Shown: positions 32,046 to 59,433 of the stretch, one piece after another
Layout of the letters: the number at the start of each line of letters is the position of its first letter
How positions within the stretch are numbered: position 1 is the first letter of the stretch
NCBI RefSeq assembly: GCF_003334785.1
Contig: NZ_QOWV01000008.1
DNA: 64,000 nucleotides
Direction: 5' to 3' (one strand)
Source of the DNA: Escherichia coli
GTDB taxonomy: Bacteria > Pseudomonadota > Gammaproteobacteria > Enterobacterales > Enterobacteriaceae
Notes under the pieces: model-generated
Told to the model about the DNA's origin: nothing
Database searches by the model: none
Seen by the model: the letters and a program-made list of their open reading frames with translations, nothing else
Translations under genes and position numbers: made by a program

Positions 32046-32144
32046 GCCTGATGCGCTACGCTTATCAGGCCTACGAAAATCTTGCAATGTATTGAATTTT
32101 CATGATTTTGTAGGCCGGATAAGGCGTTCACGCCGCATCCGGCA
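32046..32144. repeat. BIME: two REP elements in inverted orientation
   Basis: gcctgatgcgctacgcttatcaggcctac and gtaggccggataaggcgttcacgccgcatccggca. Confidence 0.7.
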
Positions 32145-42203: not shown

Positions 42204-42305
42204 TACATCGTAGCCGATGAGGACGCGCCTGATGGGTGTTCTGGCTACCTGACCTGTCCATTGTGGAAGGTCTTACATTCTCGCTGATTTCAGGAGCTAT
42301 TGATT

Positions 42306-42719
42306 ATGCGTAACTTTGATTTATCCCCGCTTTACCGTTCTGCTATTGGATTTGACCGTTTGTTTAACCACTTAGAAAACAACCAGAGCCAGAGTAATGG
42401 CGGCTACCCTCCGTATAACGTTGAACTGGTAGACGAAAACCATTACCGCATTGCTATCGCTGTGGCTGGTTTTGCTGAGAGCGAACTGGAAATTACCGCC
42501 CAGGATAATCTGCTGGTGGTGAAAGGTGCTCACGCCGACGAACAAAAAGAGCGCACCTATCTGTACCAGGGCATCGCTGAACGCAACTTTGAACGCAAAT
42601 TCCAGTTAGCTGAGAACATTCATGTTCGTGGTGCTAACCTGGTAAATGGTTTGCTGTATATCGATCTCGAACGCGTGATTCCGGAAGCGAAAAAACCGCG
42701 CCGTATCGAAATCAACTAA
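42306..42719 (+). CDS. ibpA: Small heat shock protein IbpA
   Basis: 137 aa from [17 protein letters not shown]. Confidence 0.97.
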
Positions 42720-49611: not shown

Positions 49612-51564
49612 ATGAATTCGTTACAAATCTTGAGTTTTGTCGGTTTTACGCTGCTGGTGGCGGTGATCACCTGGTGGAAGGTCCGCAAAACAGATACCGG
49701 ATCGCAACAAGGCTATTTTCTTGCCGGACGTTCACTAAAAGCGCCGGTTATTGCCGCTTCGTTAATGCTAACCAACCTTTCCACGGAACAACTGGTCGGC
49801 CTTTCCGGGCAGGCCTACAAAAGCGGCATGTCGGTGATGGGCTGGGAAGTGACTTCAGCGGTGACGCTGATCTTCCTCGCGCTAATCTTTTTACCGCGCT
49901 ATCTGAAGCGCGGCATTGCCACCATCCCCGATTTTCTGGAGGAACGTTATGATAAAACGACGCGTATTATCATCGACTTCTGCTTCCTAATTGCCACCGG
50001 CGTCTGCTTTCTGCCGATTGTTCTCTACTCCGGCGCGTTGGCGCTCAACAGCCTGTTTCACGTCGGGGAATCGCTACAGATTTCTCACGGTGCGGCTATC
50101 TGGCTACTGGTAATTTTGCTTGGTCTGGCGGGAATTTTGTATGCGGTGATCGGCGGACTGCGCGCAATGGCAGTGGCGGACTCCATCAACGGTATTGGGC
50201 TGGTTATCGGCGGGTTGATGGTGCCGGTATTTGGCCTGATCGCGATGGGCAAGGGCAGCTTTATGCAGGGCATTGAGCAACTCACCACCGTTCACGCCGA
50301 GAAATTAAACTCAATCGGTGGCCCGACCGATCCCTTGCCGATTGGCGCGGCATTTACCGGTTTGATTCTGGTGAACACCTTTTACTGGTGTACAAATCAG
50401 GGCATCGTGCAACGCACGCTGGCGTCAAAAAGCCTGGCGGAAGGGCAAAAGGGGGCGCTGTTAACGGCGGTGCTGAAAATGCTCGACCCGCTGGTACTGG
50501 TGCTGCCAGGGTTGATTGCGTTTCATCTGTATCAGGATTTACCGAAAGCCGACATGGCCTACCCGACGCTGGTCAATAACGTTCTGCCAGTGCCAATGGT
50601 GGGTTTCTTCGGCGCGGTGTTATTTGGTGCGGTGATCAGTACCTTCAACGGCTTTCTGAATAGCGCCAGTACGTTATTCAGTATGGGTATTTACCGTCGC
50701 ATCATTAACCAGAATGCCGAGCCGCAGCAGCTGGTCACCGTCGGGCGCAAATTTGGTTTCTTTATCGCTATCGTTTCGGTGCTGGTCGCGCCGTGGATCG
50801 CCAACGCGCCGCAGGGGCTGTATAGCTGGATGAAACAGCTCAACGGCATTTACAACGTGCCGCTGGTTACCATCATCATTATGGGCTTTTTCTTCCCGCG
50901 CATCCCGGCGCTGGCGGCAAAAGTAGCGATGGGGATTGGCATAATCAGCTACATCACCATCAACTATCTGGTGAAGTTCGACTTCCATTTCCTCTATGTG
51001 CTGGCCTGTACGTTCTGCATCAACGTGGTCGTGATGCTGGTGATCGGTTTTATCAAACCGCGCGCCACGCCGTTCACCTTCAAAGATGCGTTTGCGGTGG
51101 ACATGAAACCGTGGAAAAACGTCAAGATCGCGTCAATTGGCATCCTGTTCGCGATGATTGGCGTCTATGCCGGGCTGGCTGAATTCGGCGGCTACGGTAC
51201 GCGCTGGTTAGCGATGATCAGTTATTTCATTGCCGCCGTAGTGATTGTCTACCTGATTTTTGACAGCTGGCGGCGGAAGGTATTCGCTTTAATTCCGCCT
51301 ACACCTGTTCACCGGTTTGTACGCCTGCACGGGCCGGACTATTTACCGGTATCTACGCTAACCAGTCCGGCCCGTGGACCAACAACGTCGCGCCAGGCAA
51401 AAACATCTCCACTATGGGGCGCTACTTTAAGGATGCCGGCTATCACACCTGTTACATCGGCAAATGGCATCTCGACGGTCATGACTATTTCGGCACTGGC
51501 GAGTGTCCGCCGGAGTGGGACGCTGATTACTGGTTCGATGGGGCGAACTATCTTAGCGAACTGA
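49612..51564 (+). CDS. yidK: SSS-family Na+/solute symporter YidK-like; abnormal 3' end that reads into yidJ out of frame
   Basis: Transporter-like sequence to about 51262, then 94 low-complexity codons overlapping the sulfatase gene. Confidence 0.75.
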   Translation: MNSLQILSFVGFTLLVAVITWWKVRKTDTGSQQGYFLAGRSLKAPVIAASLMLTNLSTEQLVGLSGQAYKSGMSVMGWEVTSAVTLIFLALIFLPRYLKRGIATIPDFLEERYDKTTRIIIDFCFLIATGVCFLPIVLYSGALALNSLFHVGESLQISHGAAIWLLVILLGLAGILYAVIGGLRAMAVADSINGIGLVIGGLMVPVFGLIAMGKGSFMQGIEQLTTVHAEKLNSIGGPTDPLPIGAAFTGLILVNTFYWCTNQGIVQRTLASKSLAEGQKGALLTAVLKMLDPLVLVLPGLIAFHLYQDLPKADMAYPTLVNNVLPVPMVGFFGAVLFGAVISTFNGFLNSASTLFSMGIYRRIINQNAEPQQLVTVGRKFGFFIAIVSVLVAPWIANAPQGLYSWMKQLNGIYNVPLVTIIIMGFFFPRIPALAAKVAMGIGIISYITINYLVKFDFHFLYVLACTFCINVVVMLVIGFIKPRATPFTFKDAFAVDMKPWKNVKIASIGILFAMIGVYAGLAEFGGYGTRWLAMISYFIAAVVIVYLIFDSWRRKVFALIPPTPVHRFVRLHGPDYLPVSTLTSPARGPTTSRQAKTSPLWGATLRMPAITPVTSANGISTVMTISALASVRRSGTLITGSMGRTILAN

Positions 51565-54462: not shown

Positions 54463-55647
54463 TTAAACGGGCTGCCCCTGATGCGACATCCGCGTCGCCA
54501 GCGGCAGCCAGCACAGCACGATCAACAATCCCATTAAGGTCATCAACAACCCCAGGCTGCCCTGACCGGTTTGCGGCAACATCGCAGAGAGCGACGCCAG
54601 CACGCCGGAACCAATGTTTTGCAGACCGCCGACCAGCGCGCCAGCCGTGCCCGCCAGGAAGGGGAACGGCTCCATCGCGCCGCTGGTCGCCAGCGGAAAC
54701 AGCATCCCGGCACCGAAAAAGAACAGCGCGGCGGGAACGAGCAGCGTCCAGACATTCATCACGCCAAACCAGTCGGGGATCCACATCAGCAAGCCAGCCA
54801 GCAGGCAGCAGATAACCGACTGCCACATTAACGTGGAGAAGCGTTTATTGGGACGTCCGGCAAACCATGCGCCAAAAAACGCTGCCGGAATCGGCAGAAT
54901 AAACAAAATACTGACCGTCATACTGCTCAGCCCTAACACCGCGCCCATCAGCACGCCGGAGCAGGCTTCAAAGGCGGCAATCCCGGCCAGACCGCCAATC
55001 AGCATCAGCAAATAACAGTTAAAACCGCTGTTACCGAAAAGCGTTTTATAACTGGTAAGCAGGCGCGTGCGCGGTGCATCGACCGGACGCGTTTCCGGCA
55101 TCCAGCGGGCCATACTGAAGGTCACACCAGCACAAAGAACCAACAAAAAGAGATAACAGGCGCGCCAGTTCCACATCGTATCCAGCAGACCGCCGATTAG
55201 CGGTGCGAGCAACGGACTGACGAGAATCCCCATGTTTAACAGGCTGTTAGCATGGCGCAACTGTGTCCGTTCATATAAATCTCGCGGTAAAGTACGCGCC
55301 ATTACGCCGCCAACGCCGGTGCCCATCCCCTGCATCGCGCTGGCGGCAATCAACACCGTCAAACTGGAGGTCGTGACCGCGACCAGCGTTGCCAGCATAA
55401 AAATGGACATTCCGACGAGGATCACCGGTCGGCGGCCCACGCGGTCGGAAATCGGGCCATAAAACAGCTGTGAGACACCGTAAGTCAGCAGATAAGCGCC
55501 CATTACGCTCTGCACCGCCCCTTCACGGACGTTGAGATCGCGCGCCATATCGGCAATAGCTGGAATATAAATGGTTTGCGCCATCTGACCGACGGCCACG
55601 AGTAATACCAACATCAATAACAAATTGACGTTTCTTTGCCTTTTCAT
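54463..55647 (-). CDS. emrD: MFS multidrug efflux transporter EmrD
   Basis: 394 aa from MKRQRNVNLLLMLVLLVAVGQ. Confidence 0.95.
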   Translation of the reverse strand: MKRQRNVNLLLMLVLLVAVGQMAQTIYIPAIADMARDLNVREGAVQSVMGAYLLTYGVSQLFYGPISDRVGRRPVILVGMSIFMLATLVAVTTSSLTVLIAASAMQGMGTGVGGVMARTLPRDLYERTQLRHANSLLNMGILVSPLLAPLIGGLLDTMWNWRACYLFLLVLCAGVTFSMARWMPETRPVDAPRTRLLTSYKTLFGNSGFNCYLLMLIGGLAGIAAFEACSGVLMGAVLGLSSMTVSILFILPIPAAFFGAWFAGRPNKRFSTLMWQSVICCLLAGLLMWIPDWFGVMNVWTLLVPAALFFFGAGMLFPLATSGAMEPFPFLAGTAGALVGGLQNIGSGVLASLSAMLPQTGQGSLGLLMTLMGLLIVLCWLPLATRMSHQGQPV

Positions 55648-55822
55648 TATCACGGATGCTTTTATAAAAATAATTAGAATAAGTCACTACGCATTCCCAT
55701 AAATGCGGGAGAGGAATCTATCACATTGATGAATGTTAGCCAGATATACGCCAGGAATGGGGAATTGTTTAGCGGCAGAATATGTAAACAAAAGCGGCAA
55801 TAAATGTTGCCGGGAGAGATGG

Positions 55823-55857
55823 TAGGGCGGATAAGATGCGTCAGCATCGCATCCGAC
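55823..55857. repeat. REP-like palindromic element
   Basis: gcggataagatgcgtcagcatcgcatccgac. Confidence 0.5.
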
Positions 55858-55870
55858 ACCAACCCGCACG

Positions 55871-55904
55871 CTAAATATAAAAGGGGAGCGGTTTCCCGCT
55901 CCCC
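55871..55904 (-). terminator. Intrinsic terminator downstream of tisB
   Basis: ggggagcg/cgctcccc hairpin with U-run on minus strand. Confidence 0.65.
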
Positions 55905-55926
55905 TTTGGTGCGACTTGAATCTGAA

Positions 55927-56016
55927 TTACTTCAGGTATTTCAGAACAGCATCAAGCAGTTGCAGTGCTGCAACAATGAGTTTGAGGATAAGAATGGCGA
56001 TATCCACCAGGTTCAT
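55927..56016 (-). CDS. tisB: Type I toxin TisB (29 aa)
   Basis: Reverse complement translates exactly MNLVDIAILILKLIVAALQLLDAVLKYLK*. Confidence 0.92.
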   Translation of the reverse strand: MNLVDIAILILKLIVAALQLLDAVLKYLK

Positions 56017-56250
56017 ACGCGTCTCCTGTGGTTCAGGAGCACTGCCAGCTGACGTACCTTTCCGCTGCCTGTTGCCAGCTGTTGTGCACGCGGTATCTCA
56101 AGGAGAAACGTTGTGCTTGTTGACATAACACAGTGTGCTCACGCGGGGTTAAGGCGCTGACGGCACCACCCGTTTCAGCCAGGACTTAGTGCGCCGGGTA
56201 ACGATGCGGCCCCCGCATAACACATTGCGTACAGTGATATTATAGAAGTT

Positions 56251-56270
56251 TACTGTATAAATAAACAGTA
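56251..56270. promoter_or_regulatory. LexA box (SOS operator) for tisAB / istR-2
   Basis: TACTGTATAAATAAACAGTA, CTGT-N8-ACAG. Confidence 0.8.
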
Positions 56271-56376
56271 ATATTTGGACAAAACGCAAACTGTGATCGA
56301 TACTCAACTATGCACTAAATACGTCAAAATTCGTGCCGAAATTGCGCGTTCTGCGCGGAACACGTATACTTTCAGT

Positions 56377-56451
56377 GTTGACATAATACAGTGTGCTTTG
56401 CGGTTACCAGCCGCAGGCGACTGACGAAACCTCGCTCCGGCGGGGTTTTTT
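56377..56451 (+). ncRNA. istR: IstR-1 antitoxin sRNA, about 75 nt (IstR-2 would start further upstream)
   Basis: -10 tatact at 56365-56370; 21-nt match to the tisAB leader; terminator hairpin plus T6 at 56426-56451. Confidence 0.6.
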
Positions 56452-56580
56452 GTTATCTGCAATTCAGTACAAAACGTGATCAACCCCTCAATTTTCCCTT
56501 GCTGAAAAATTTTCCATTGTCTCCCCTGTAAAGCTGTGCTTGTATAAATATTGTTAAACACAAAACCAACAAGGTCCCCA

Positions 56581-56679
56581 ATGACTACTTCCATGCTCAA
56601 CGCAAAACTACTACCAACTGCGCCATCCGCCGCAGTGGTCGTCGTGCGTGTGGTGGTGGTCGTCGGCAATGCGCCGTAG
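56581..56679 (+). CDS. ivbL: ilvB operon leader peptide IvbL (32 aa)
   Basis: MTTSMLNAKLLPTAPSAAVVVVRVVVVVGNAP*; Val/Leu-rich. Confidence 0.9.
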   Translation: MTTSMLNAKLLPTAPSAAVVVVRVVVVVGNAP

Positions 56680-56706
56680 GGACTGGAACAACACACGATT
56701 CCAAAA

Positions 56707-56736
56707 CCCCGCCGGCGCAAACCGGGCGGGGTTTTT
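56707..56736 (+). terminator. ilvB attenuator terminator
   Basis: ccccgccggcgcaaaccgggcgggg hairpin followed by ttttt. Confidence 0.8.
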
Positions 56737-56784
56737 CGTTTAAGCATCTCCCGGAAAGTCGGCCCAGAAGAAAAGGACTGGAGC

Positions 56785-58473
56785 ATGGCAAGTTCGGGCA
56801 CAACATCGACGCGTAAGCGCTTTACCGGCGCAGAATTTATCGTTCATTTCCTGGAACAGCAGGGCATTAAGATTGTGACAGGCATTCCGGGCGGTTCTAT
56901 CCTGCCTGTTTACGATGCCTTAAGCCAAAGCACGCAAATCCGCCATATTCTGGCCCGTCATGAACAGGGCGCGGGCTTTATCGCTCAGGGAATGGCGCGC
57001 ACCGACGGTAAACCGGCGGTCTGTATGGCCTGTAGCGGACCGGGTGCGACTAACCTGGTGACCGCCATTGCCGATGCGCGGCTGGACTCCATCCCGCTGA
57101 TTTGCATCACTGGTCAGGTTCCCGCCTCGATGATCGGCACCGACGCCTTCCAGGAAGTGGACACCTACGGCATCTCTATCCCCATCACCAAACACAACTA
57201 TCTGGTCAGACATATCGAAGAACTCCCGCAGGTCATGAGCGATGCCTTCCGCATTGCGCAATCAGGCCGCCCAGGCCCGGTGTGGATAGACATTCCTAAG
57301 GATGTGCAAACGGCAGTTTTTGAGATTGAAACACAGCCCGCTATGGCAGAAAAAGCCGCCGCCCCCGCCTTTAGCGAAGAAAGCATTCGTGACGCAGCGG
57401 CGATGATTAACGCTGCCAAACGCCCGGTGCTTTATCTGGGCGGCGGTGTGATCAATGCGCCCGCACGGGTGCGTGAACTGGCGGAGAAAGCGCAACTGCC
57501 TACCACCATGACTTTAATGGCGCTGGGCATGTTGCCAAAAGCGCATCCGTTGTCGCTGGGTATGCTGGGGATGCACGGCGTGCGCAGCACCAACTATATT
57601 TTGCAGGAGGCGGATTTGTTGATAGTGCTCGGTGCGCGTTTTGATGACCGGGCGATTGGCAAAACCGAGCAGTTCTGTCCGAATGCCAAAATCATTCATG
57701 TCGATATCGACCGTGCAGAGCTGGGTAAAATCAAGCAGCCGCACGTGGCGATTCAGGCGGATGTTGATGACGTGCTGGCGCAGTTGATCCCGCTGGTGGA
57801 AGCGCAACCGCGTGCAGAGTGGCACCAGTTGGTAGCGGATTTGCAGCGTGAGTTTCCGTGTCCAATCCCGAAAGCGTGCGATCCGTTAAGCCATTACGGC
57901 CTGATCAACGCCGTTGCCGCCTGTGTCGATGACAATGCAATTATCACCACCGACGTTGGTCAGCATCAGATGTGGACCGCGCAAGCTTATCCGCTCAATC
58001 GCCCACGCCAGTGGCTGACCTCCGGTGGGCTGGGCACGATGGGTTTTGGCCTGCCTGCGGCGATTGGCGCTGCGCTGGCGAACCCGGATCGCAAAGTGTT
58101 GTGTTTCTCCGGCGACGGCAGCCTGATGATGAATATTCAGGAGATGGCGACCGCCAGTGAAAATCAGCTGGATGTCAAAATCATTCTGATGAACAACGAA
58201 GCGCTGGGGCTGGTGCATCAGCAACAGAGTCTGTTCTACGAGCAAGGCGTTTTTGCCGCCACCTATCCGGGCAAAATCAACTTTATGCAGATTGCCGCCG
58301 GATTCGGCCTCGAAACCTGTGATTTGAATAACGAAGCCGATCCGCAGGCTTCATTGCAGGAAATCATCAATCGCCCTGGCCCGGCGCTGATCCATGTGCG
58401 CATTGATGCCGAAGAAAAAGTTTACCCGATGGTGCCGCCAGGTGCGGCGAATACTGAAATGGTGGGGGAATAA
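56785..58473 (+). CDS. ilvB: Acetolactate synthase I large subunit IlvB
   Basis: 562-aa ORF, ThDP enzyme. Confidence 0.98.
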   Translation: MASSGTTSTRKRFTGAEFIVHFLEQQGIKIVTGIPGGSILPVYDALSQSTQIRHILARHEQGAGFIAQGMARTDGKPAVCMACSGPGATNLVTAIADARLDSIPLICITGQVPASMIGTDAFQEVDTYGISIPITKHNYLVRHIEELPQVMSDAFRIAQSGRPGPVWIDIPKDVQTAVFEIETQPAMAEKAAAPAFSEESIRDAAAMINAAKRPVLYLGGGVINAPARVRELAEKAQLPTTMTLMALGMLPKAHPLSLGMLGMHGVRSTNYILQEADLLIVLGARFDDRAIGKTEQFCPNAKIIHVDIDRAELGKIKQPHVAIQADVDDVLAQLIPLVEAQPRAEWHQLVADLQREFPCPIPKACDPLSHYGLINAVAACVDDNAIITTDVGQHQMWTAQAYPLNRPRQWLTSGGLGTMGFGLPAAIGAALANPDRKVLCFSGDGSLMMNIQEMATASENQLDVKIILMNNEALGLVHQQQSLFYEQGVFAATYPGKINFMQIAAGFGLETCDLNNEADPQASLQEIINRPGPALIHVRIDAEEKVYPMVPPGAANTEMVGE

Positions 58474-58476
58474 GCC

Positions 58477-58767
58477 ATGCAAAACACAACTCATGACAAC
58501 GTAATTCTGGAGCTCACCGTTCGCAACCATCCGGGCGTAATGACCCACGTTTGTGGCCTTTTTGCCCGCCGCGCTTTTAACGTTGAAGGCATTCTTTGTC
58601 TGCCGATTCAGGACAGCGACAAAAGCCATATCTGGCTACTGGTCAATGACGACCAGCGTCTGGAGCAGATGATAAGCCAAATCGATAAGCTGGAAGATGT
58701 CGTGAAAGTGCAGCGTAATCAGTCCGATCCGACGATGTTTAACAAGATCGCGGTGTTTTTTCAGTAA
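58477..58767 (+). CDS. ilvN: Acetolactate synthase I small subunit IlvN
   Basis: 96-aa ORF. Confidence 0.97.
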
Positions 58768-58842
58768 CCGCTCAAGGCTTGAACAACATCGCGCTTATCG
58801 TTAAGGTAAGCGCGTATTTTTTTTACCCGCCAGGACAAGACC

Positions 58843-59433
58843 ATGATCACCGTTGCCCTTATAGACGATCACCTCATCGTCCGCTCCGGCTTTGCGCAGC
58901 TGCTGGGGCTGGAACCTGATTTGCAGGTAGTTGCCGAGTTTGGTTCGGGGCGCGAGGCGCTGGCGGGGCTGCCGGGGCGCGGTGTGCAGGTGTGTATTTG
59001 CGATATCTCCATGCCCGATATCTCCGGTCTGGAGCTGCTAAGCCAGCTGCCGAAAGGTATGGCGACGATTATGCTCTCCGTTCACGACAGTCCTGCGCTG
59101 GTTGAGCAGGCGCTTAACGCGGGGGCACGCGGCTTTCTTTCCAAACGCTGTAGCCCGGATGAACTCATTGCTGCGGTGCATACGGTTGCCACGGGCGGCT
59201 GTTATCTGACGCCGGATATTGCCATTAAACTGGCATCCGGTCGTCAGGACCCGCTAACCAAACGTGAACGCCAGGTGGCGGAAAAACTGGCGCAAGGAAT
59301 GGCGGTGAAAGAGATTGCCGCCGAACTGGGCTTGTCACCGAAAACGGTACACGTCCATCGCGCCAATCTGATGGAAAAACTGGGCGTCAGTAACGACGTA
59401 GAGCTGGCGCGCCGCATGTTTGATGGCTGGTGA
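58843..59433 (+). CDS. uhpA: Response regulator UhpA
   Basis: 196-aa ORF, receiver domain plus LuxR-type HTH. Confidence 0.97.

Follow-up and report, generated by a model that had tools for sequence, protein, structure and literature searches.

The ivbL leader and ilvBN transcription attenuator in a 64-kb stretch of Escherichia coli DNA

The sequence immediately upstream of ilvB in the window, by which we mean the whole 64-kb (64,000-nucleotide) stretch of Escherichia coli DNA that was analyzed, is the textbook ivbL leader and ilvBN attenuator, an element that is already known. It is almost certain that the locus is the ivbL-ilvBN ribosome-mediated transcription attenuator of E. coli. Computational analysis found a leader open reading frame (ORF) with a Shine-Dalgarno (SD) sequence and AUG, control codons, a terminator, an antiterminator exclusive of that terminator, and the ribosome footprint geometry of a ribosome-mediated attenuator. 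The full classical attenuator logic was reproduced in this way, including three exclusive folds, footprint geometry, and conservation across genera. An earlier note, made from the DNA letters, had proposed transcription attenuation of ilvBN at this site, and the proposal is supported by the exclusive folds, identity to K-12, family models, and a published response to Val and Leu. The element therefore serves as a positive control, in which a textbook regulator was correctly recognized from raw sequence, and it leaves current understanding unchanged.

Results

To place the locus, the window was compared with E. coli K-12. Positions 55069 to 59069 differ from K-12 MG1655 positions 3850500 to 3854500 (reverse strand) by 1 mismatch in 4001 bases, and a 601-base query across the locus matched 5424 of 5426 complete E. 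coli genomes. The K-12 ivbL leader and ilvBN attenuator, reportedly described by Friden et al. in 1982 and by Hauser and Hatfield in 1983, is the same throughout as the element seen here except at 56747, which is T in the window and C both in K-12 and in the best-matching E. coli genomes. Position 56747 is outside the attenuator, 11 nt 3′ of the U-run and within the ivbL-ilvB spacer. The T variant appears private to this genome because a 46-nt query centered on it had no match in the 5426 complete E. coli genomes, and the change had no predicted effect on local folding or on accessibility of the ilvB ribosome-binding site. The gene order, emrD-tisB-istR-ivbL-ilvB-ilvN-uhpA, is that of K-12, and the ORF is annotated in RefSeq as ivbL (b3672), "ilvBN operon leader peptide." Moreover, the IvbL peptide matched NCBIfam NF007579 (78.7 bits; cut-off, 60) and Pfam PF08049 (IlvB_leader; 72.5 bits), each over residues 1 to 32 of 32. 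The leader ORF is followed on the same strand by ilvB and then ilvN (together 56785 to 58767), the regulated genes, which passed equivalog models for acetohydroxy-acid synthase (AHAS) and encode the large and small subunits of AHAS I. Thus, the earlier placement of ivbL upstream of ilvB was borne out by K-12 identity, by the RefSeq annotation, and by the NF007579 and PF08049 matches. Coordinates of all features are given in Table 1.

Table 1. Features of the ivbL-ilvBN locus and of the surrounding window
Feature	Position	Strand	Description or basis
Candidate ivbL promoter −10 hexamer TATAAA	56543-56548	+	Putative; read from sequence
ivbL SD sequence AAGG	56571-56574	+	6 nt 5′ of AUG; read from sequence
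Protector domain	56573-56684	+	MFE −47.6 kcal/mol, z = −2.1; part of full-length MFE
ivbL leader ORF, MTTSMLNAKLLPTAPSAAVVVVRVVVVVGNAP	56581-56679	+	ATG at 56581, 32 sense codons, TAG at 56677-56679
Leu codon CUC (codon 6)	56596-56598	+	Codon reading
Tandem Leu codons CUA-CUA (codons 10-11)	56608-56613	+	Codon reading
Hairpin A (CUGCG...CGCAG)	56618-56635	+	56618-56622:56631-56635; inside ORF, ends at first Val codon
Val control-codon run GUG GUC GUC GUG CGU GUG GUG GUG GUC GUC	56635-56664	+	Val x4, Arg, Val x5
Antiterminator	56670-56719	+	56670-76:56713-19, 56679-81:56708-10, inner hairpin 56684-88:56699-703
Intrinsic terminator (attenuator)	56703-56736	+	Stem 56703-56715/56722-56735, bulged G 56724, U-run 56732-56736
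ilvB	56785-58473	+	NCBIfam NF006016, 1087.5 bits (cut-off 870); RefSeq annotation
ilvN	58477-58767	+	NCBIfam NF006036, 185.8 bits (cut-off 128); RefSeq annotation
tisB ORF, MNLVDIAILILKLIVAALQLLDAVLKYLK	55927-56016	−	ORF
Perfect LexA-box-like sequence, TACTGTATAAATAAACAGTA	56251-56270		Sequence reading
istR	56322-56451	+	Rfam, 150 bits; own terminator 56426-56451
AsdA antisense RNA of dnaA	26510-26590	−	Rfam, above gathering score
ES036/CssrF	32067-32109	−	Rfam, above gathering score
ROSE_2 thermoregulator	42240-42312	+	Rfam, above gathering score

The leader ORF is marked by an extreme run of Val codons. Residues 19 to 28 read VVVVRVVVVV, and in a six-frame scan of the 64-kb window with ten-residue windows this was the most extreme single-residue run, equalled only by its own antisense image. 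The earlier description of a 32-codon leader rich in Val and Leu was correct, but its 12-residue stretch for the nine Val residues was too long, as nine fall within 10 residues. The leader has three Leu codons in total and no Ile codon, and CUA is rarely used for Leu in E. coli. The transcript may start near 56555, approximately 25 nt 5′ of the leader AUG. The candidate −10 hexamer was not reported by a two-hexamer consensus promoter scan because it has no good −35 element. The ilvB promoter is presumably cAMP-CRP dependent, which would fit a poor −35 element.

All leader structures described here are thermodynamic predictions. The terminator lies 23 nt 3′ of the stop codon and ends 49 nt before the ilvB start. 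Its G+C core pairs 56707 to 56715 with 56722 to 56731 around the loop CGCAAA, and A-U pairs can lengthen the stem to 56703/56735, such that the sequence reads AAAACCCCGCCGG-CGCAAA-CCGGGCGGGGUUUU-U. The core (56707 to 56731) together with the U-run agrees exactly with the GC-rich hairpin and T-run that had been noted at 56707 to 56736. The terminator fold was −21.6 kcal/mol (z = −3.0), and in a 49-nt context (56692 to 56740), in which a short outer helix is added, −24.0 kcal/mol (z = −4.0); the whole 186-nt leader folded at −71.4 kcal/mol (z = −3.3). A simple terminator scan did not report the ivbL hairpin because the bulge pushes the ungapped loop beyond 8 nt. A 3′ end named ivbL_t, of weak termination strength, has been reported by Term-seq (PMC9023263).

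Two further folds are predicted in the leader. The 5′ arm of the antiterminator is made of the final codons of the leader, AAU GCG CCG UAG, plus GGG, and its 3′ arm combines the 5′ arm of the terminator with the first four loop bases of that hairpin. The antiterminator has a minimum free energy (MFE) of −21.9 kcal/mol (z = −3.0) and is the MFE structure of a transcript cut at 56721. The protector domain is closed by a basal SD helix (56573-78:56679-84), in which SD-proximal GGUCCC, a strand (56573 to 56578) opened by the 3′ GG of the SD sequence (56573 to 56574), pairs with stop-proximal GGGACU. Within the protector, AUGACUACU, which begins at the AUG, pairs with the Val codons GGUGGUCGU (56581-89:56655-63), further inner helices form, and a hairpin here called hairpin B (56664-67:56673-76) ties up GCCG of the antiterminator 5′ arm. 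The protector is thus predicted to sequester both the antiterminator 5′ arm and the leader SD and AUG. Bases 56703 to 56719 are common to the terminator and the antiterminator, and bases 56670 to 56684 are common to the antiterminator and the protector. The earlier note had set a search for alternative hairpins as the check on its claim, and mutually exclusive terminator, antiterminator, and protector folds are indeed predicted.

The energies of the competing folds suggest that the order of folding matters. Within RNA 56665 to 56740, the terminator and the antiterminator are isoenergetic, both at −21.6 kcal/mol, and the direct refolding path between them has an estimated saddle approximately 17.7 kcal/mol above either fold; therefore, whichever fold forms first should persist on the time scale of transcription. 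For the full-length RNA, the fold with the terminator is only 0.5 to 4.8 kcal/mol better than the fold with the antiterminator. When nascent RNA was folded stepwise in 4-nt steps, the protector was the MFE structure until the 3′ end reached 56712, the antiterminator was the MFE structure for 3′ ends from 56716 to 56728, and the terminator plus protector took over from 56732. Without a ribosome, the transcript cut at 56721 already has the antiterminator as its MFE structure, approximately 12 kcal/mol better than the protector state, and therefore the protector would oppose antitermination only kinetically. Folding of this kind suggests that the protector would favor termination by forming approximately 20 to 30 nt earlier.

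The effect of translation was modeled with a ribosome mask, a 30-nt footprint extending from −15 to +14 of the A-site and placed at every codon, and the outcome depends on that assumed footprint. With the A-site at codons 1 to 26, the antiterminator was the MFE structure of the transcript cut at 56721, with 10 to 11 pairs between 56670-56684 and 56703-56719. Moving the A-site to codons 27 to 33 placed the footprint over 56671 to 56676 in the antiterminator 5′ arm. When the ribosome stood at the stop codon, no pairs formed onto 56703 to 56721, such that the terminator was free to form. Stalls anywhere in codons 1 to 26 gave an identical predicted outcome, and therefore the fold model alone does not explain why regulation is limited to Val and Leu. 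We conclude that Val/Leu specificity rests on codon number, on the choice of a rare codon, and on published experiments.

The published experiments used the ivbL region of MG1655 as a biosensor, and downstream GFP was repressed by added Val and by added Leu with differing sensitivities (PMC11187965). In the same report, ivbL-gfp was not repressed by Ser, Ala, Thr, Gly, Arg, or Pro (PMC11187965). Attenuation is also cited for the ilvB leader in another report, with in vitro pausing taken from Hauser et al. 1985 (pmid 2578464, via PMC11347164).

To determine how widely the element occurs, the N-terminal 300 residues of IlvB were used to collect 80 loci from one-genome-per-species contigs (67 to 98% identity). 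Nearly all 80 loci carry a Val-run leader with the C terminus AAVVVVRVVVVVGNAP and the same terminator. Leader-bearing genera include Escherichia, Citrobacter, Enterobacter, Klebsiella/Raoultella, Kosakonia, Serratia, Buttiauxella, Cedecea, Dickeya, Brenneria, Samsonia, Yersinia, Providencia, and Moellerella. An alignment was built from 74 distinct leaders, nearly all of them from Enterobacterales, and these 74 retain the reading frame and a start codon, either AUG or GUG. The terminator was 94.1% paired across the alignment, compared with 64 to 65% when partners were slid by one column, and antiterminator helices 1 and 2 were 94.2% and 96.4% paired. RNAalifold, run independently of the E. coli fold, recovered the terminator as well as hairpin B. 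Sequence hardly varies in the terminator and the main antiterminator helices, and they therefore provide conservation with essentially no covariation signal: among the 74 leaders, the terminator had one compensatory cell, and shuffle controls were not exceeded for the terminator or the antiterminator.

Across the 74 leaders, the protector was 80% paired over 14 pairs (30 to 63% with slid partners) and had 65 cells in which both sides had changed, compared with 29.8 in shuffles, and none of 500 shuffles reached 65. The SD helix was 81.5% paired and included a U-A to A-U exchange (17 versus 12 sequences), with a U-U mismatch in 43 of the 74 leaders. Moreover, terminator-loop bases 56716 and 56717 were invariant, and 56718 was at least 90% conserved. 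Conservation of these loop bases is needed by antiterminator helix 1 and not by the terminator, and it is explained by the antiterminator alone.

Deep conservation of this kind bears on whether ilvBN might be controlled here mainly after transcription, by pairing of the GcvB small RNA (sRNA) and cleavage by RNase E, with attenuation as a minor layer. GcvB would then act at the CA-rich 5′ untranslated region (UTR; 56556 to 56572) and at a site between ivbL and ilvB, for which the CA-rich stretch at 56689 to 56698 is a candidate. RNase E sites have been reported in the ivbL-ilvB intergenic region (PMC11347164), and both CA-rich stretches were among the best GcvB-R1 duplexes. The GcvB-R1 duplexes, however, were no better than those with shuffled targets (best real, −19.2; shuffle mean, −21.4). 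Moreover, the terminator, antiterminator, and control codons are deeply conserved, and the reporter responds to Val and Leu (PMC11187965), which shows strong selection on attenuation. Mainly post-transcriptional control is very improbable. We conclude that sRNA and RNase E control of ilvBN is real but additive to attenuation rather than an alternative to it, the GcvB layer being drawn from the literature.

Codon-level conservation also argues for attenuation and against an independently functioning peptide. If IvbL were a functional small protein, for example, one with a membrane-active Val run, the hairpin could be an ordinary or leaky terminator uncoupled from translation, and the C-terminal 16 residues are indeed almost invariant across genera at the amino acid level. 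In codons that specify an unchanged amino acid, however, third positions were identical to those of E. coli at a rate of 0.92 for leader codons 17 to 32, compared with 0.61 for codons 1 to 300 of ilvB from those genomes, and the UAG stop codon and noncoding bases were invariant. The conserved GCG CCG UAG (third positions of GCG31 and CCG32, 1.00 and 0.99) makes the antiterminator arm, and third positions in the Val run were 0.71 to 0.94 identical across genera. The N-terminal half, in turn, varies freely save for CUA-CUA, which had at least 0.91 identity at all six bases among 70 non-Escherichia leaders while neighboring codons drifted. The reporter response to amino acids (PMC11187965) also counts against an independently acting peptide, and we give that reading almost no weight. 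Conservation of the loop bases, synonymous sites, and stop codon points to selection on the RNA and not on the peptide alone.

Hardly any probability attaches to a third reading, in which an upstream transcript (the IstR sRNAs or read-through from further upstream) simply ends at the hairpin and U-run and the Val-rich frame is open by chance, for although istR lies just upstream in the same direction (Rfam, 150 bits), IstR has its own terminator, and the ORF has an SD sequence and AUG, stands alone in the six-frame scan, passed two curated family models, and accompanies ilvB from Escherichia to Yersinia and Providencia.

An antisense ORF of 165 amino acids with a GTG start (56304 to 56801, minus strand) spans the element. 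It is without annotation in any E. coli record and gave no independent signal, and its TTTTTRTTTT mirrors the Val run. We rejected this ORF as a gene and conclude that it is probably an artefact of skewed composition.

The leader RNA contains additional conserved signals, the first of which is a small hairpin here called hairpin A. Hairpin A folded immediately once transcribed in the stepwise simulation, and it was 97.6% paired across the 74 leaders. Its pair 56619:56634, which joins the synonymous third-codon sites of Thr13 and Ala18, is U-A in 20 leaders and C-G in 49, with five exceptions. The two states are scattered over several genera, and two Pluralibacter sequences differ from each other; thus, more than one evolutionary event is likely. 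The trp leader pause hairpin has the same placement just 5′ of the control codons, and by analogy hairpin A is a candidate RNA polymerase pause or synchronization hairpin. RNAalifold favored an alternative in which 56618 to 56623 pairs with GUGCG at 56644 to 56648. The Arg CGU codon that interrupts the Val run midway is nearly invariant, and the alternative pairing, if it forms, would explain its conservation.

Two CA-rich stretches, one in the ivbL 5′ UTR (56556 to 56572) and one in the antiterminator loop (56689 to 56698), resemble GcvB R1 target motifs. It is conceivable, if rather doubtful, that hairpin A, the Arg CGU codon, CUA-CUA, and the CA-rich stretches make up a pause and synchronization module plus GcvB docking sites, beyond the three-hairpin model. 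If so, the decision to terminate or read through, and not just translation of ilvB, would follow global amino acid status in addition to the charging of Val- and Leu-tRNA.

Discussion

The predicted folds and ribosome geometry are consistent with the following sequence of events. A leader transcript would begin approximately 25 nt 5′ of the AUG, and a ribosome would translate the 32-codon leader behind RNA polymerase. When Val- and Leu-tRNA are well charged, the ribosome would reach the last codons or UAG and cover 56670 to 56684, the terminator (56703 to 56735) and U-run would form, and transcription would stop 49 nt before ilvB. If the supply of charged Val-tRNA (codons 19 to 26) or Leu-tRNA (codons 6, 10, and 11) runs low, the ribosome would stall upstream, breaking the protector and freeing 56670 to 56684 to pair with the emerging 56703 to 56719 before the 3′ arm of the terminator exists. 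The antiterminator, having formed first, would persist while polymerase passes, and ilvBN would be transcribed. Without translation, the protector would form first and bias the outcome toward termination. The kinetic order of folding in this scheme is inferred and should be read as probable.

The ivbL element belongs to a well-described class. The ilvL leader of ilvGMEDA contains codons for Ile, Val, and Leu, and each of these amino acids elicits a response. The ilvL/ilvGMEDA attenuator of E. coli is of the same class, with a 32-codon leader, branched-chain codons, competition between terminator and antiterminator, and multivalent control, and its sequence is not homologous to that of ivbL, as only IvbL models matched here. 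Unlike ilvL, ivbL lacks Ile codons, and its response is to Val and Leu (PMC11187965). ilvL, ivbL, and leuL have been listed together (PMC9299463). As in the Yanofsky model of the trpL attenuator, ivbL has a protector (1:2), an antiterminator (2:3), and a terminator (3:4), with control codons 5′ of region 2, which is masked when the ribosome sits at the stop codon. Unlike trpL, the ivbL protector is long range and also pairs the SD sequence and AUG of the leader itself, the control codons number nine in a run rather than two, and the final part of the ORF itself serves as the antiterminator 5′ arm.

The Thr, Leu, His, and Trp leaders in Rfam are the same kind of cis-regulatory RNA as ivbL, and no family in Rfam 15 matched the ivbL leader at the gathering threshold or at an E value of ≤1. 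The miss reflects the absence of an ivbL covariance model from Rfam 15 and not a property of the sequence. Two minus-strand Rfam matches over the hairpin (STnc310, 25 bits; P6, 21 bits) were below threshold and were rejected as the terminator stem read backwards.

The ivbL attenuator serves as a Val/Leu biosensor in metabolic engineering (PMC11187965). For such work, a map of the bases that serve only the antiterminator, such as terminator-loop bases 56716 to 56718, has some practical use.

Additional observations

Val-rich leaders approximately 90 to 155 nt 5′ of ilvB, such as MNRSLSRILSLPVVAVVGVVRVGVRMA, were also seen in metagenome-assembled genomes (MAGs) assigned to Rhodocyclales/Rhodocyclaceae (L070, L076, and L081) and in L080. 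MAG contigs labeled as Betaproteobacteria carry IlvB relatives of 67 to 73% identity and a near-identical CCCCGCCGGCG...GGCGGGG terminator core. The MAG leaders suggest either horizontal spread of ilvBN together with its attenuator or mis-binning.

A tisB/istR type I toxin-antitoxin locus lies directly upstream of ivbL (55927 to 56451), and the LexA-box-like sequence in Table 1 falls between those coordinates. At the yidK/yidJ junction (approximately 51260 to 51274), approximately 159 nt of MG1655 sequence is absent between two copies of CTGGCGGCG. The short form matches other E. coli genomes exactly, and on that sequence evidence we take it to be a natural allele. The rest of the 64 kb differs from MG1655 by approximately 11 substitutions and two 1-nt indels. 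The heat shock genes ibpA and ibpB lie in the same part of the K-12 map as the ROSE_2 match, and the K-12 map also places the tnaC leader and the bglG antiterminator system within the window.
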